Virus record (IMG/VR): IMGVR_UViG_3300025450_001231
Strand: one strand, 5' to 3'
DNA: 64,000 nt
Origin: a virus
Taxonomy: Duplodnaviria; Caudoviricetes
Numbering within the stretch: position 1 is the first letter of the stretch; each line of letters opens with the position of its first letter. Below the pieces are notes generated by a model, which saw only the letters and a list, made by a program, of their open reading frames with translations, did no database searches and was not told the DNA's origin. Below, one piece after another: positions 1,451-22,313 of this stretch. Both the position numbers and the translations under genes were made by a program.

Positions 1451-1479
1451 TTGACAAAAAAACCAAAGTCTGCTATAAT
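1451..1479 (+). promoter_or_regulatory. consensus sigma70 promoter with extended -10
   Basis: TTGACA-17-TATAAT with TG at the extended -10 position. Confidence 0.85.
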
Positions 1480-1545: not shown

Positions 1546-1887
1546 ATGAGTACATTTACAGTTGCTGGCGTTAGTACACTCAATGGTCAAGTTAAAGTTC
1601 GTTTTGCTAACGATATGACCCGCGTTAAGAATCTGCAGAAAAGCGGTCACCTTAACATCAACTTGTTGCCATTGCCCAACGCAATGAGCAAAGCTGAAAT
1701 CGTTGCTTTTTTGAAGACTACAGATTTGTATACTGTAGTTGAGAATCGTGAAGCTATCGATTCTGCTTACACCAAGTACAATGAAGTTAATGTGGTCAAG
1801 GTTACAAAAGCCAAAGCCGCTAAAGCCGCTCCTAGCATCGAAGCTATCAAAGCTCGTGCAGCAGCCACAGACGCAGTAGCAGAGTAA
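1546..1887 (+). CDS. conserved hypothetical protein with Ala/Lys-rich tail
   Basis: 113 aa, AGGAG SD, VKVRFAND motif. Confidence 0.7.
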   Translation: MSTFTVAGVSTLNGQVKVRFANDMTRVKNLQKSGHLNINLLPLPNAMSKAEIVAFLKTTDLYTVVENREAIDSAYTKYNEVNVVKVTKAKAAKAAPSIEAIKARAAATDAVAE

Positions 1888-1922
1888 TTGCTACAAAATG
1901 GATTGTGGTGCAAGTGTGCGCC

Positions 1923-2099
1923 ACATACCATTGATAAGTGTTTGAGATGAAAAATTGGGTAGGTTAGTGGACGCACTATCTAGCGGGGCTCAACTGGCGT
2001 GGTCGGAGTCCCTGATATAACCAAGCTATACGCTGTTGCACGAGAATACGCAAGTACCGGACGCATAAATTGGCACTCAAATACTTTTCAATGGTATGT
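1923..2099 (+). ncRNA. candidate structured non-coding RNA (~177 nt), family unknown
   Basis: 24-bp terminal stem 1923-1946/2076-2099 (one U-U, one G-U); internal hairpins 1960-1982 and 1985-2012; no good ORF. Confidence 0.6.
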
Positions 2100-2151
2100 C
2101 AACTAATTTGATCAGTAAGGCGTTATATATACATACACTCTCGGAGGGTCT

Positions 2152-2448: not shown

Positions 2449-3282
2449 ATGAAAAAACTTCTACTAACCTTATTTCTACTGTTTTCGACTTTTGTCCTAG
2501 CACAAACACCGACCTCAACAGTTCCGCTACCCCCAGATATAGCTGCAATTAAAAAGCATAACGTGCTGATTGTTGCTATGACTAAAAAAGATAATCCTCC
2601 GTTTTTCAGCGGTGAAGGCGATGATATACACGGACTTGATGTTGATATCGCTCACAGTATTGCTACGGTATTGGGCGTACCGGTTCAGTTTAGACGAGAT
2701 GCCGACAGCTTTGCAGACGTAGTCGAACAGGTTAGAGATGGTCGTGCCGACGTTGCAGTCAGTAAACTGTCAGTTACCAATCCTAGATTACTCACAGTAC
2801 GATTCAGTGTACCTTATATCAAGCTCAAGCAAGCAATGATTGTGAATCGTCTTTGGTTGAGTCAAAACAGTAAAGGTCGAGAAGTGTATCAAGTGATCAG
2901 AGAGTTTGACGGTAAAATCAGTTTTATCCGCAACAGCAGTTACGATACTTTTGCTAGAATCAATTTTCCCCACGCACAGTATATTCCACAAGACCAGTGG
3001 AGCGACATTGTTGCAGATGTTATGAGTGGTAAAATTGCAGCTGCATACAGAGATGAATTTGAATTGAAGAAAATTAGTTTTGAAAAACCTGATGCTGCAT
3101 TGAGTACTAAAACCATTACCATCAGTGACAGTGTAGACAATATTGCCGTGGCAGTTAACTATCAAAGCGTTCAATTGCTAAGTGTGATTGATTATGTAAT
3201 TCGTAATCAATATGGTAATTTGGATAGTGGTAAACTAATGACACGTTATAAAGCTGAAGCATCAACCAAGGACGCAAAATGA
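2449..3282 (+). CDS. periplasmic amino-acid substrate-binding protein (family 3, PBPb)
   Basis: signal peptide MKKLLLTLFLLFSTFVLA; PPFF...GLDVDIA, GRADVAVSKLSVT..R..VRFS.PY motifs. Confidence 0.85.
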   Translation: MKKLLLTLFLLFSTFVLAQTPTSTVPLPPDIAAIKKHNVLIVAMTKKDNPPFFSGEGDDIHGLDVDIAHSIATVLGVPVQFRRDADSFADVVEQVRDGRADVAVSKLSVTNPRLLTVRFSVPYIKLKQAMIVNRLWLSQNSKGREVYQVIREFDGKISFIRNSSYDTFARINFPHAQYIPQDQWSDIVADVMSGKIAAAYRDEFELKKISFEKPDAALSTKTITISDSVDNIAVAVNYQSVQLLSVIDYVIRNQYGNLDSGKLMTRYKAEASTKDAK

Positions 3283-4556
3283 TTTCTCGATTAAAAACTT
3301 TTCTAACAAGCCCGTTGACTATATTGGGCTCTATTGTTGCTGGTGTACTCACTGGCATTTATACACCCAATACCATTGCAGAATTCGAAAGTGTGGGCGG
3401 CATTTATATTATGTTGCTAAAGGTAGTTGTATTGCCTTTCTTGTTTGCTACTATTTTAGTTGGAGTAATTAACCTTCTGCAAAAAGAAGGTAGCCAAGCA
3501 ATGATTAAAAAAATCATTATTGGTTTTATAGCCAGTATGTTTTTTGCGGCCGCAATTGGAGTTATCACTGTTGTTGCCACTGGCACCGATATGACTCCAG
3601 AAAAGAAAACACAATTGGGTGCATTAGTCAACAACAAAAGCGATGGCGGCGATCTTAATATTACATTACACGAGCCAATGCCCGTCACTCCTGCAGCAGA
3701 TCCTATGCTACTTGCACAAAAGTTTATTCCTGAAAATATCTTTGCTACCTTGGATAAAGGCGAAAGTCTCAAGATTGTTATTTTCTGTATGATATTTGGT
3801 ATTGCATTGGGTAACCTAAAAAGCGAAGGCCAAAAAATGTTGGTCAATGTACTGCAAAGTATTCAGCAAGCGAGTATCAGTATCTTTAAGTTTTTGAATT
3901 ACTTTTTGCCCTTTGCCTTATTGGCCATGATTGGTGCACAGGTTGCCAAAGTAGGTGTTGGTATTTTTGGTACTATGGTAGAGTTTATTGTTCAACAAAC
4001 AATAGGTGGACTATTAATTATCATAGCCAGTACTGTTGTAATTTGGATGCGTGCCGGTGGTAGTATTATAACAACTATCAGAGAAACTAAAGAAACGCTA
4101 ATCGTTGCTATCAGCTCACGTAGTAGTTTGGCCTGTATTCCTTATGCACAAGAAGCATTGCACAAGTTGGGATTTGAGCGTAGCGGTGTTGAGCTGACTG
4201 TACCATTGAGTTTTACTGTTAATCGTATTGGCAGTATTGTTTACTATGCTATTGCCACAGTATTCATTTCTGGTATTTACGATATGCCAATGACTGCCAC
4301 TTCATTGATTGTTGTGTTGTTTGGTAGTATTTTAGCTGGATTGGCCAGTGCAGGTACTACTGGTATACTTACTGTTGCCACCGTAGCAGTTGTTTGCGAT
4401 TTGTTAAAGTTACCTTCTGAAGCAGTATTGGTACTATTGATTGCAGTTGATCCATTGATGGATATGATTAGAACTGCTAGCCACGTACACGGTAATGTTG
4501 CGGTAACAGCATTTGTTTGCGATAAAGAAAATGAACCTCAAAGATCTACTACTTGA
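3279..4556 (+). CDS. dicarboxylate/amino acid:cation symporter (DAACS, GltP/DctA family)
   Basis: 425-aa polytopic protein; LLKVVVLP, PENIF, SSRSS, DMIRT motifs; substrate Arg retained. Confidence 0.9.
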   Translation: MISRLKTFLTSPLTILGSIVAGVLTGIYTPNTIAEFESVGGIYIMLLKVVVLPFLFATILVGVINLLQKEGSQAMIKKIIIGFIASMFFAAAIGVITVVATGTDMTPEKKTQLGALVNNKSDGGDLNITLHEPMPVTPAADPMLLAQKFIPENIFATLDKGESLKIVIFCMIFGIALGNLKSEGQKMLVNVLQSIQQASISIFKFLNYFLPFALLAMIGAQVAKVGVGIFGTMVEFIVQQTIGGLLIIIASTVVIWMRAGGSIITTIRETKETLIVAISSRSSLACIPYAQEALHKLGFERSGVELTVPLSFTVNRIGSIVYYAIATVFISGIYDMPMTATSLIVVLFGSILAGLASAGTTGILTVATVAVVCDLLKLPSEAVLVLLIAVDPLMDMIRTASHVHGNVAVTAFVCDKENEPQRSTT

Positions 4557-5139
4557 CATATTAAACTGGATAGGGCAAAGTCCGTTTAGGCTTTTTGCTG
4601 TTATTCTACTATTGATTTTAGGTATGGGCGGCTGGATCGTCTATACCGAAAAAGACAATTTCATGGCCAGCTATCGTGCTCAGCAGGCTTTACCGCATAT
4701 GAATGGCAAATATGAAGAAGCAACTACATTTATATTGAAAAATAGTAGTGCAGAGCTTATAGCAGTATTTGAAGTCAACACCTTACTGAATACTAGAAAA
4801 CTTGTTTACTTTGTTACTCGCAGTGGCGGAGTTGATAAGAGTTATAACGGATCCGATGTTGGCCTACTGACCAAAAATTACGATAATAACAATGATGTTA
4901 TCGGTCTAATGTCAGGTAAGATTCCTTGCAGTCCTTATTTGAAGCCACAGAGCTTTTTGGGATTTGTATATCGCGAAGCCGGAGTTGAATATATGTGTAG
5001 AATCAGCGTCCCTGCAGAGCCCGGAGTATTCATTGGACAGTTAAGTGTAGGATGGAAAACACCGCCTGCCGATCTCGAATCTGCACAAACAATATTAACA
5101 GTTGCTAGCTCATTGTTGTATGCTGGCAAAAAGCCGTGA
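4531..5139 (+). CDS. T4 holin T-like single-pass membrane protein with periplasmic GAF-like domain (start moved from 4513 to ATG 4531)
   Basis: amphipathic N-terminus, one TM (RLFAVILLLILGMGGWIVY), C-domain motifs SSAELIAVF, EYM...G.....W, LES resembling T4 gpT as recalled. Confidence 0.55.
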   Translation: MNLKDLLLDILNWIGQSPFRLFAVILLLILGMGGWIVYTEKDNFMASYRAQQALPHMNGKYEEATTFILKNSSAELIAVFEVNTLLNTRKLVYFVTRSGGVDKSYNGSDVGLLTKNYDNNNDVIGLMSGKIPCSPYLKPQSFLGFVYREAGVEYMCRISVPAEPGVFIGQLSVGWKTPPADLESAQTILTVASSLLYAGKKP

Positions 5140-5825
5140 AAAAATTAGGCGTACTGGGTGGGATGGGCCCAGCTGCAGGTGCAGAATTTTTAGTAAGACT
5201 TATAAATCAAACTCCCGCTAAAAAAGATCAAGAGCATATTCCCGCAGTACTTTGGAGTGATCCCACAGTATCTGATCGTAGTACCAGTTTGTTAAATGGC
5301 GATGATTTACCATGGCCCAAACTTCGAGAAGGTATATTGGGATTAAGAACCGCAGGATGCGATCACATTGTTATACCTTGTAATACCGCACATTTTTGGT
5401 ATGATCGTTTACAAGAGTTAGGAGTGCCTATTACGCATATTGTAGATAGCGTAGCGGATCAATTGAGAGCCAGTGGAGTAGTAAACACCACCATTGGTAT
5501 TATGGGAACCAAAGCTACTATCAGTCAGGGACTGTATCAAAATCGTTTGTCGGCACAAGGTTGGAATTGTATAACCCCTACCAGCAGTGAAATGAACGAA
5601 CTGGTACAACCTGCTATTGATTTGATCAAATCTGGAAAAATGTTATTGGCAGAAGGTATGCTGAACCAAGTTATGGGCACACTAAACGATCAAGGTGCCA
5701 ATGCCATTGTATTGGGTTGTACCGAGTTACCATTGGCTATTCGCAGAACCAGTTTCAAAAATCGTCCTATAGTTAACAGTATTGATAGTTTAGTCAAAGC
5801 TGTACTAAATATTCAATGCGTATAA
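5136..5825 (+). CDS. aspartate/glutamate racemase
   Basis: LGVLGGMGP, CNTAH and GCTEL two-cysteine catalytic motifs; GTGA overlap with upstream gene. Confidence 0.92.
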   Translation: MKKLGVLGGMGPAAGAEFLVRLINQTPAKKDQEHIPAVLWSDPTVSDRSTSLLNGDDLPWPKLREGILGLRTAGCDHIVIPCNTAHFWYDRLQELGVPITHIVDSVADQLRASGVVNTTIGIMGTKATISQGLYQNRLSAQGWNCITPTSSEMNELVQPAIDLIKSGKMLLAEGMLNQVMGTLNDQGANAIVLGCTELPLAIRRTSFKNRPIVNSIDSLVKAVLNIQCV

Positions 5826-7149: not shown

Positions 7150-7540
7150 CATCGTATGAAGGAATAAGAACAATTGGCTGGACGCGGGGGGCAGTGCCCC
7201 GCCCGGTCCACCATAAACATATTAGAATCTGTAAAAAGATCGGGTTTGGTATCCCAGTCCTCTACCTGTAAGACTTAATACACCTTAGTATGTTTTTGAT
7301 GGGCCGGTCTTAGATTCGACAGTTGGTGCAGTATTTGACCAGACGATGCGGTAGGCGATGACCGTAAATCAAGCAAAACTAGTAAATGCAAAAACATCTA
7401 CAAAATTGGGTACTTTCAAAGTAACTGCAGGTAAAGGATTCCGCTTCAGCGGTTCTAAAGCTGCATCTACAAAGGAAGTAGCGTTCGTTTAATCGAACCC
7501 CACGGGGTAGGACTTACCTTGTAAAATAAACAACCAGGAC
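7150..7540 (+). ncRNA. ssrA: circularly permuted (two-piece) tmRNA
   Basis: 3' half (GAC, T-arm, CCGGUCC-A-CCA ending 7213) precedes 5' half (GGGCCGG...AUUCGAC from 7301); acceptor stem with G3.U70; P2 helices 7321-26/7174-79, 7332-36/7162-66, 7343-48/7150-55; paired intervening segment; 5' end of acceptor piece uncertain (may start near 7080). Confidence 0.92.
7388..7492 (+). other. tmRNA tag reading frame AKTSTKLGTFKVTAGKGFRFSGSKAASTKEVAFV
   Basis: GUAAAU context followed by GCA resume codon after a pk1-like hairpin; open 34 codons to TAA 7490-7492. Confidence 0.7.
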
Positions 7541-16462: not shown

Positions 16463-16684
16463 ATGAGTCAAGATAAAAAAGCGAAAATCAAACACAAAGT
16501 CACTCTCAGTAAACAAAGCAAGCGATATGCAGCTTTGATTTTGGATCCGCACAAGCGTGGTGCATTTATTCGTAGTCAATTGGATGCAGAAAATACTGCA
16601 TTTATGGCCAAGTTTGCCAAACCACAACGTGATAATAAACCAAAATTTGGACAAGCACCTGCGGAAACGCCAGAGAATACTTGA
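16463..16684 (+). CDS. small basic hypothetical protein
   Basis: AAGGA SD; 73 aa, Lys-rich. Confidence 0.6.
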   Translation: MSQDKKAKIKHKVTLSKQSKRYAALILDPHKRGAFIRSQLDAENTAFMAKFAKPQRDNKPKFGQAPAETPENT

Positions 16685-19613: not shown

Positions 19614-22313
19614 ATGTCTTTACTTGCTAATTTATCTCTTCCATTCACTGGTGCGGCCCCAAATGACGGGTCTGGCACTACTTTACGCGATGCGTTCAAC
19701 GAAGTCAATACTGATTTATCGTTAATAGCTGCCGCAGTTGATCATCTCAATACATTAGGAATAACAAGCGGTCCGCAAGGACCAACAGGCCCAAGCGGTC
19801 CATCGGGCCCAAGCGGTGCAATTGGTCCACAAGGTCCGATTGGACCAATCGGTGCGTCTAGTACAGTACCAGGTCCGCAAGGTCCACAAGGACCAATCGG
19901 CCCATCGGGCCCTCCCGGAGGTCCACAAGGACCACAAGGCGATATTGGACCATCAGGACCAAGCGGTCCGCAAGGCCCAACAGGTCCAGCAAGCAATATA
20001 CCAGGTCCAATCGGGCCATTAGGCCCAGCAGGACCAACAGGACCAAGCGGTCCAACAGGACCAGCAGGAGGACCACAAGGCCCAACAGGCCCAGCAGGTA
20101 GTGCAGGCCCAGCAGGTCCAGCAGGTAGCACAGGTCCAGCAGGGCCAGCAGGTCCAGCAGGAACCAACGGTGCTGCAGGTCCAACAGGTCCAGCAGGTCC
20201 AGCAGGTAGTACAGGTCCAGCAGGTCCAGCAGGTCCTTCAGGTAGTCCAGGACCAAGTGGTCCAGCAGGTAGCACAGGTCCATCAGGTCCAAGTGGTCCA
20301 TCGGGAGCAGCAAGCACAGTTCCGGGCCCAACAGGACCAAGTGGTCCAGCAGGTAGCACAGGCCCAGCGGGTCCAGCAGGTCCTTCAGGCAGTCCAGGAC
20401 CAAGTGGTCCAGCAGGTAGCACAGGCCCAGCAGGCCCAGCAGGTCCGGCAGGTCCAATCGGTCCAATCGGACCAGCAGGAGGAACAGGACCGTCTGGTCC
20501 GTCGGGTAGTCCTGGTCCACAAGGACCCGCTGGTAATACAGGTCCTTCAGGTCCGTCGGGACCAAGCGGAGCAACAGGAGCACAAGGACCACAAGGTCCA
20601 ACCGGACCGTCAGGGGCACAAGGACCACAAGGACCAATTGGTCCAATAGGCACACAAGGATTATTAGGCCCAACCGGACCGTCAGGAGTACAAGGACCAC
20701 AGGGACCTCTTGGAGCACAAGGCCCACAAGGCCCGCAAGGTGCAAAGGCAGGATTAAAATACTATTGGGATGGCGCTAATAGCGGTGTAGCAGGAACTAG
20801 TGGAAACGGTAGTCTTAGAACCAGTCAAAGTAACACATATCTTGCTTGGACTAACGCCACTAATTTATATATAAGTGCATACGATGCCAATGGAGTTAGT
20901 CTAGTTAATTATATTACACAATGGGGAGCCAGTACTGGTCTTATAAAAGGACAAATCATTATGCAAGATAGTGCAAATGATTTTGTAGTTTATAACATAA
21001 CTGGTTCAGTTATCAATAATTCAACTTATTTTACTATTCCGGTTACTTCTGTCGGCAGCTCATCCACTGTTCCAGCCAACAATACCACATTATATCTTGA
21101 ATTTGTTCGTACAGGTGATGTGGGACCAAGCGGTCCACAAGGACCACAAGGAACAACAACTTACGTATATAATGTTAAAAGTCCAGTGTATGGAGCCAAA
21201 GGAGATGGCTCAACCGACGATACCGCAAGTATTCAAAGTGCAATTACTGCAGCTACTACCACTGGCGGAACAGTATTTTTCCCAGCCGGTACTTATAAAA
21301 TTACCAGTGGTGTATCGCTATCAATAACAAACGGTAGTGATCCTGGTCCCAGAGTGCACTTTCTCGGAGAAGGTATTGGAGCCAGTATAATTAAACAGTT
21401 TTCCAGTTCTAGCAATGGTATTAACATAGTTTCAACTAATGTAAACTGTTATGTTCAGATTTCCAGTTTAACCATATTAGGTGCAGGCGGCGGATCTGGA
21501 ATTAATTTTAGCGGTGGTTGGTTCTGTAGAATTAGAGATTGTGAAATATACAACTGGATCAACGGTGTTTACGCTACAAATATGATTGCATCTACCATAG
21601 ATGCTTGCTATATCAAATATAATACTACCGGTGTTGCTATCACTAATGCCGCAGGAACAGGTCAAATTGATCCTAGCGGTATCAACATTATCAATACTGA
21701 AATTGGCTGGAACACCAGTATAGGTATTAGTATAACTGGGCCCAGTAATTTTACCATGACCAGCTGTTATGTGGATAACAACGGTACAATTGGCAGCAGC
21801 ACCTATGCTGTGCAATTGTATGATAGCGGTGGAGTAGTGGCTGAAGTTGATCCAGCAGGATTTATGATACAGGGCACGCTATTTTATCAAAACGGCGGTG
21901 TAGCTGACATCTTAGTAAGACAAGATGTTGCGAGAAGCGGAGTAACTGGAACTATTATTGGTTGCGGATTCACTAGAACTCCTACTAATTATACCACTAA
22001 CAATATATCTTTGCAAGGATCTGCATCTACTACTACTTTCCCTGTTAGCATTATCAGTTGCGGATTCTATGCAGGGAATTATAGTGCAAGTCGTCCAACC
22101 ATTGGAAACTCCAGTAATTGGTGGCCAGTTTTACTACAGGCTTGTAACTTTGGTAGCAGCGTAGATCAATATGTACCACCAACTCCATCCAATGGAACAA
22201 GCCCTGGTGTATTGGGACAAACTATAGTAGATAAAACAGGTGGTAATTTGTACTTCTGTTATGCACCAAACACGTGGGCAAAGATTAGTGGTTTAGTCTA
22301 TGCTTCATTTTAA
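19614..22313 (+). CDS. collagen-like tail fibre/spike with C-terminal pectate-lyase-like beta-helix
   Basis: [13 protein letters not shown]-motif; long (Gly-Pro-X) array; YNVK...GAKGDG.TDD..IQSAI...GGTVFFPAG. Confidence 0.85.
19770..20750 (+). repeat. collagen-like Gly-X-Y coding repeat with internal longer duplications
   Basis: continuous GGT/GGA-CCA-NNN triplet repeat; unit ggtccagcaggtccttcagg(t/c)agtccaggaccaagtggtccagcaggtagcacagg occurs twice. Confidence 0.95.

Follow-up and report, generated by a model that had tools for sequence, protein, structure and literature searches.

The element and its surroundings

The window, by which we mean the entire 64-kb stretch of phage DNA that was analysed, carries on its plus strand a folded element of ~177 nt (1923-2099) that lies behind an ORF of 113 aa; members of the family to which it belongs are 155-177 nt long. 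The parts of the locus, in window coordinates and with helices numbered as used throughout, are the following.

1451-1479 (+): sigma70-type promoter, TTGACA-17-TATAAT with TG; 12 of 12 consensus matches
1546-1887 (+): 113-aa ORF, without a Pfam or PHROG family, kept in many uncultured phages
1905-1924 (+): 8-bp hairpin GUGGUGCA/UGCGCCAC with loop AGUG; abuts the closing stem, no U-tract
1923-1946 (+): P1 5' strand, pairs with 2076-2099; 15/15 aligned P1 pairs covary in 86 sequences
1957-1958 (+): two-pair long-range contact, G1957-C2022 and G1958-C2021; encloses H1 and H2, always paired
1960-1982 (+): H1, hairpin of 9 bp in which one U is bulged, capped by a GACG tetraloop (1970-1973); 5/7 aligned pairs covary
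1985-2012 (+): H2, 7-bp hairpin (1985-1991/2006-2012) whose 14-nt loop takes part in the pseudoknot; 3/6 aligned pairs covary
1995-2001 (+): pseudoknot 5' strand UGGCGUG in the H2 loop, pairs with 2029-2035; paired in 86/86 sequences
2025-2028 (+): P6 5' strand GCUA, partner UGGC at 2071-2074; P6 encloses the pseudoknot 3' strand and P4/P5
2029-2035 (+): pseudoknot 3' strand UACGCUG, supported by covariation
2037-2065 (+): P4 (2037-2039 with 2063-2065) around the P5 hairpin region (2040-2062); P4 pairs 97-100% paired
2071-2074 (+): P6 3' strand UGGC, with a near-invariant AAAU just before it
2076-2099 (+): P1 3' strand, pairs with 1923-1946, supported by fold and covariation
2097-2132 (+): promoter-like phage motif TGTCAAC ... 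GGCGTTATATAT, beginning at the final P1 bases

The two arms of the closing stem, 24 nt each, are 92% complementary, and reading them directly gives 22 Watson-Crick pairs together with G1940-U2082 and U1935-U2087, exactly the helix that an earlier, sequence-only reading of this DNA had described; the 64-kb window holds no second copy of a closing-stem arm, with none expected by chance. The plus strand of 1900-2105 folds to -74.7 kcal/mol (z = -5.04), which none of 200 dinucleotide shuffles equals, and the minus strand folds less well (-59.2 kcal/mol, z = -4.15). Three hairpins that had been picked out by eye, namely the 8-bp hairpin ahead of the closing stem (1905-1924), the 9-bp hairpin with its GACG loop (1960-1982) and the 7-bp hairpin (1985-1991/2006-2012), are all present in the minimum-free-energy fold. 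Also borne out are the duplication of GGACGCA inside the element (1969-1975 and 2059-2065) and a GC content above that of the flanks (44.6% versus 38% and 34%). At the related locus L035, a hairpin of other sequence stands in place of the one at 1905-1924, and in the subgroup to which the window belongs P5 has an additional GCAA-capped stem, here at 2047-2056.

The sequence-only reading had placed the element downstream of a consensus sigma70 promoter. Such a promoter does exist, but it lies ~440 nt upstream and drives the 113-aa ORF, so that the RNA, which lacks its own promoter, belongs to the 3' portion of that transcript. Similar sigma70-type promoters occur elsewhere in the window, at 16681 and 18275. 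No terminator-like site was found in 1400-2600, and hence none between the 113-aa ORF and the RNA. Past the element, the promoter-like motif at 2097-2132 probably starts the next transcription unit, that of a 43-aa ORF (2152-2283); like motifs recur in L032/L033 and L035, and L001 has part of one. Another recurrent promoter-like phage motif, AGTATAAATA(A)CTGTA, stands at about 2285-2310 and about 2428-2450, ahead of the next two ORFs.

A large RNA family outside the catalogues

Ten metagenome contigs from other samples, in which the 113-aa protein is identical, carry an identical element and are thus uninformative on variation. More telling is L035, whose ORF is 65% identical and has a homologue of the element directly behind it (blastn 6e-22). 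A conserved 17-mer taken from these two copies, that of the window and that of L035, was used to scan IMG/VR and the JGI metagenomes and yielded 7 loci, plus 17 metagenome loci. A covariance model built from 8 sequences (R1) confirms the members found through the 17-mer and also recovers members that lack it. The pattern of the conserved 5' core occurs in at least 120 IMG/VR contigs, and each of the 80 loci retrieved from among these holds one full-length match (65-155 bits). Altogether, more than 100 homologues in uncultured phage contigs reduce to 86 distinct sequences.

None of the resources searched has an entry for this RNA. The sequence-only reading had seen no likeness to tRNA, tmRNA, SRP RNA, RNase P RNA or the hammerhead ribozyme and had proposed a comparison with Rfam; run with Rfam 15, that comparison gives zero matches at the element, whether to the models of these classes and of other ribozymes or to those of any other family. 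At the gathering threshold, the whole window has a single match, to a permuted tmRNA (7150-7435), and nothing overlaps the element when 1700-2400 is searched with E values up to 10. Nine related loci at the gathering threshold show tRNAs, tmRNAs and one GOLLD RNA, none of them at the element, and for five divergent members searched with E up to 5 the matches fall only on neighbouring genes. A tRNA or tmRNA, permuted forms included, can be set aside: ARAGORN finds neither in the 64-kb window, nor in doubled cores at a relaxed threshold, where permuted forms would appear, and the Rfam tRNA and tmRNA models match only neighbours of the element.

Searches beyond Rfam gave the same picture. Three family members compared with 50,697 GenBank phage records by blastn in its 'distant' mode have no match. 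The exact 17-mer occurs 15 times in 185,579 bacterial and archaeal genomes, but no occurrence is significant under the model (best E 0.084), and we therefore read these as chance; a sample of 802 genomes from two bacterial phyla does not contain the 5'-core pattern. A full-text literature search for such an RNA of phage tRNA arrays returned no relevant description. The element thus belongs to a large, phage-specific RNA family outside Rfam, carried by uncultured giant lake phages.

Covariation defines a pseudoknotted fold

The fold was scored on a plain MAFFT alignment of the 86 distinct sequences that was not fitted to any structure, and the structure scored comprised 44 pairs in 8 helices, pseudoknot included. 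Standard pairs occupy 94.6% of the cells as against 71.4% after shuffling, a level that none of 500 shuffles reaches, and sliding the 3' partners by 1-3 columns drops the paired cells to 36-46%. The covariation score is 0.633 versus 0.203 for shuffles, and 34 of the 44 pairs are changed on both sides (shuffled mean, 29.5). Compensatory changes, the lack of which the sequence-only reading had named as the result that would speak against it, are thus abundant among the homologues.

Support extends over most of the helices. P1 covaries throughout; H1 keeps its GACG loop in 82/86 sequences, and in H2 one G-U pair is kept in 85/86. Of the two pairs that enclose H1 and H2, one (columns 35:103) is AU in 60 sequences, GC in 16 and GU in 10, and the other (columns 36:102) is an invariant G-C. 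Each of the three pairs of P4 occurs as 3-4 pair types. For the pseudoknot, whose core pairs are G1997-C2033, C1998-G2032, G1999-C2031 and U2000-A2030, two of four pairs covary (GC 57/CG 29 and AU 44/GC 29/UA 13). The sequence-only reading had proposed this very pairing and had located its 3' strand correctly (2029-2035), but its 5' strand, UGGCGUG, lies at 1995-2001 rather than 1996-2002. Support is less clean in P6 and P5, with 75% and 72% of cells paired and a third P6 pair that is UG in 37 sequences, CG in 26 and AU in 12, because the alignment shifts there; inspection of subfamilies reveals compensatory versions in this region, for example GCUUA/UGAGC, and CGG/CCG versus CUC/GAG. Another candidate helix, between GUAUC in the region of columns 37-41 and GAUAU in the H2-P6 joiner, was rejected since the joiner varies without compensation.

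Besides its helices, the alignment has 28 invariant columns, mostly unpaired. The many G-U pairs, among them the one kept in 85/86, identify the plus strand as the one transcribed, and the flanking tRNAs of relatives lie on the same strand as the element. We conclude that the element is the gene for a folded, pseudoknotted non-coding RNA; the homologues and their covariation uphold the original view of it as a conserved structured phage RNA on the plus strand.

Residence in phage tRNA arrays

The usual place of the RNA is inside phage tRNA operons. In 74 of 102 copies, a same-strand tRNA starts between -5 and +9 nt after the match, mostly 0-2 nt; this downstream neighbour is tRNA-Asp(GUC) in 21 copies and tRNA-Cys(GCA) in 18, with 13 other anticodons making up the remainder. 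On the opposite side, 29 of the 102 copies have a tRNA (tRNA-Glu in 23 of them) whose end is no more than 6 nt from the 5' end of the element, and where the preceding tRNA ends at the 5' end of the element its ACCA forms the outer part of P1. The RNA is a single-copy gene, with one match in each of five phage records that are 92-100% complete and 320-355 kb long.

The window belongs to a subgroup (with L039, L060, L065 and L072) in which, as in L035, no tRNA adjoins the element and the 113-aa ORF precedes it. The distance from the tRNAs can be large: G001, which is related to the window's phage and 98% complete, has the element at 195 kb and its 22 tRNAs more than 110 kb away, at 305-320 kb. 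In this lineage an additional segment (the UUGAGAUGAAAAA region) extends P1 to 24 bp, at the upper end of the 17-24 bp that the closing helix spans in the family. At least 367 metagenome proteins make up the family of the 113-aa ORF, which in several relatives heads the tRNA/tmRNA island. A conserved pairing of the RNA with this ORF, its only recurrent neighbour among protein genes, was considered and rejected, as the two adjoin in only 1 of 5 complete genomes; in the more distant relatives L001 and L032, an ordinary intrinsic terminator stands behind the ORF in the element's place. The copies of the element in the window and in L039 differ at 5 positions in about 175 nt (about 97% conserved), whereas the HSP that spans promoter, ORF and element is 72.7% identical and the neighbouring protein 59% identical. 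The element is thus far better conserved than the protein next to it, which points to strong selection on the entire RNA or to recent transfer.

Two further kinds of non-coding sequence were seen next to the element in these arrays. A conserved GC-rich stretch of about 190-230 nt, which we call 'X', adjoins it on the upstream side in L037 (338-527) and L038 (776-1000, minus strand) and on the downstream side in L035 (3020-3255); no Rfam model matches it at the gathering threshold, and the window lacks it. Between tRNA-Glu and the element, L042:6161-6443 and L040:182-386 (minus strand) contain stem-closed modules with arms AAAACACA.../...UGUGUUUU and unrelated interiors, and helix-framed cassettes therefore seem to be general in these arrays.

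Relation to known RNAs

The closest parallel, a positional one, is with RNA C and RNA D of phage T4 (rnaC and rnaD, also species 1 and 2), which are likewise phage-encoded non-tRNA RNAs, of 119-139 nt, and lie a few bases from tRNA-Arg and from each other inside the T4 tRNA cluster. They mature together with the tRNAs, and to our knowledge their function is still unexplained. The family shares with them ends that abut tRNA genes in a phage tRNA operon, whereas the window's copy, with no tRNA in 64 kb, does not. Structurally the two groups part ways: rnaC ends in a tRNA-like T-arm (CCGGGUUCGAAUCCCGG), which the family RNA lacks, and the family RNA has a covarying pseudoknot and a closing helix of 17-24 bp, unlike either T4 RNA. 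Run with filters off on AF158101 69000-74000, R1 reaches at best 13 bits, on hairpins only, and detects no homology to rnaC or rnaD.

GOLLD (RF02032) and ROOL are, like the present family, structured RNAs of phage tRNA islands, many of them from lake metagenomes. At 400-800 nt, versus 155-177 nt here, they are much larger; they are also unrelated to it, and neither has an Rfam match at the element. GOLLD and ROOL form multimers (PMC12286853). One array holds both kinds of RNA: L037:1587-2052 is a GOLLD RNA (197.6 bits) that has a tRNA-Asn inside it, and the element lies about 0.9 kb away.

In its modular layout, a long stem formed by the ends and a structured module, the RNA resembles Y RNAs of the YrlA type, the partners of Ro60/Rsr. 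Some phages carry Y RNAs, which have a link to tRNA biology. The likeness stops there: Rfam has no match at E values up to 5-10, and no tRNA-like T- or D-arm module was detected in the family RNA. A TROVE/Ro60 gene was found in 0 of 5 near-complete phage genomes carrying the RNA, with positive controls; any Ro partner would be one that the host encodes. A retron msr-msd RNA was also considered and rejected, as there is no RVT_1 match in five complete genomes or among the window ORFs scanned.

Giant lake phages keep dense islands of translation-related RNA genes, which include tRNAs, a two-piece tmRNA and GOLLD, and the new family is a further conserved, single-copy, non-tRNA member of phage tRNA islands, one without a catalogue entry. 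At about 155 nt it offers a compact way into a question that is more than 50 years old, the role of non-tRNA stable RNAs in phage tRNA clusters. With a fold this well supported, virome annotation by means of the covariance model can begin immediately, and the RNA is small enough for structure determination, pull-downs and cleavage assays.

Proposed function and processing

We lean, by a little, toward the view that this is a stable phage RNA acting in trans, which would be processed out of its transcript and bind a partner through its invariant knotted core, a proposal that we base on comparison of sequences. P1 frames a compact core composed of H1, H2, an H-type pseudoknot between the H2 loop and a downstream strand, and P6 enclosing P4-P5. 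We posit that the RNA is cut from a longer transcript as a discrete, stable species. In most relatives the flanking tRNAs would set its limits, the 5' end arising as the preceding tRNA is matured at its 3' side and the 3' end as RNase P cuts in front of the next tRNA. For the window's lineage, where no tRNA is adjacent and P1 has been lengthened to 24 bp, host RNase III or plain trimming of the ends down to the helix would be the likely route. A helix of 24 bp is long enough for RNase III; a gene for this enzyme was found in none of five near-complete genomes carrying the RNA, so processing of this kind in the window's lineage would need the enzyme of the host. Once released, the RNA could act in trans, its knotted core presenting a specific binding surface to a host or phage protein or to another macromolecule. 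The sequence-only reading had also listed an RNase III-processed sRNA and a protein sponge, either of which may apply. By analogy with other stable RNAs of phage tRNA/tmRNA islands, the candidate partner is probably tied to tRNA or translation biology.

Other readings put the function of the element elsewhere. It would come as some surprise, though not a great one, if the element were a helix-framed punctuation cassette acting in cis, in which P1 (i) insulates and positions cleavage sites in polycistronic tRNA or mRNA transcripts or (ii) caps the 3' end of the 113-aa ORF mRNA, the interior being idle in trans. The element fits flush against a tRNA gene on one side or on both, stem-closed modules unrelated to it stand nearby in the same arrays (such as those at the start of L042:6161-6443 and at L040:182-386 on the minus strand), and in the window the element takes the slot of the intrinsic terminator found behind the same ORF in L001 and L032. 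Dense packing of tRNA arrays may by itself account for the flush fit, and the unrelated helix-closed cassettes in the same arrays leave room for a purely cis-acting role of the frame. Yet a mere frame needs neither 28 invariant columns nor a pseudoknot and a second domain that both covary and have been kept through 86 variants; nor would it account for a core that is about 97% conserved beside a flanking protein that is 59% identical, or for the single copy retained more than 110 kb from the tRNA array in G001. An active part in tRNA biology, either as a new ribozyme class or as a tRNA-docking RNA, appears improbable from what the sequences offer. A ribozyme would cut the precursor at its own borders and thereby free phage tRNA maturation from host enzymes. 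Such a self-cleaving RNA, able to release itself along with the tRNA ends beside it and needing neither RNase P nor RNase E, would fit the compact, pseudoknotted multi-helix core with its many invariant unpaired nucleotides, the ribozyme-typical size and the coincidence of element ends with mature tRNA ends; but no self-cleaving ribozyme model of Rfam 15 matches at E values up to 5-10 and the window's copy has no tRNA neighbour to release, and we hold this version, too, to be improbable. Docking could use codon-anticodon recognition of the kind that T-box RNAs employ: all six variants of the H1 loop, which together cover 86/86 sequences, contain an Asp codon, GAC or GAU, and the tRNA most often found downstream is that for Asp. 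The loop does not vary with the identity of the neighbouring tRNA, and its GAC may be nothing beyond part of the tetraloop.

The remaining explanations carry less weight. That the RNA is a riboswitch-like ligand sensor controlling downstream read-through or processing is very doubtful, despite an aptamer-like pseudoknotted core, strong sequence conservation and, 53 nt downstream in the window, a small ORF that has a ribosome-binding site: what lies downstream varies among tRNAs with at least 15 anticodons, another non-coding RNA and an ORF, there is no evident alternative terminator/anti-terminator (and nothing terminator-like in 1400-2600), and no Rfam riboswitch matches. The sequence-only reading had favoured, as one example, a 6S-like decoy for RNA polymerase, and length and long closing stem are indeed comparable. 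6S RNA is a rod with a central bubble resembling an open promoter, however, whereas the structure backed by covariation is branched, multi-helical and knotted and has no such bubble, and no 6S model matches in the window at the gathering threshold or with E up to 10, or in five divergent members with E up to 5; we regard a decoy of this type as extremely unlikely. Scarcely any credence is due to an element that works as DNA, be it a MITE with terminal inverted repeats, a recombination site or an origin. Inverted repeats of 24 bp do surround about 130 bp, but there is a single copy per genome (in the window and in 5/5 genomes of 320-355 kb), the G-U pairs, one of them near-invariant, would be A-C mismatches on the other strand, the internal helices and the pseudoknot covary, and orientation is fixed relative to the tRNAs.

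Other features of the window and its relatives

The tmRNA at 7150-7435 (+), a two-piece (permuted) form that matches RF04321 with 80.3 bits, was missed by ARAGORN. Relatives carry two-piece tmRNAs of the beta type with the tags ANDEQFALAA or ANDELFALAA; this sequence type and its tags hint at betaproteobacterial hosts. Two otherwise near-identical loci, L032 (3303-4616) and L033 (3303-3809), differ by an extra insertion of ~800 nt in L032, within the non-coding sequence just upstream of the permuted-tmRNA match. Its ORF resembles, by eye, a GIY-YIG homing endonuclease, and the insertion may be a mobile insertion or an intron at or in the phage tmRNA gene.

Directly downstream of the element, the region 2449-5825 (+) encodes a solute-binding protein (SBP_bac_3), a sodium:dicarboxylate symporter (SDF) and an Asp/Glu racemase, cellular-type auxiliary genes that form an unusual set for a phage. 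At 19614-22313 (+) lies an ORF of 899 aa in which 9-nt repeats, at about 19760-20730, encode collagen-like Gly-X-Y triplets.
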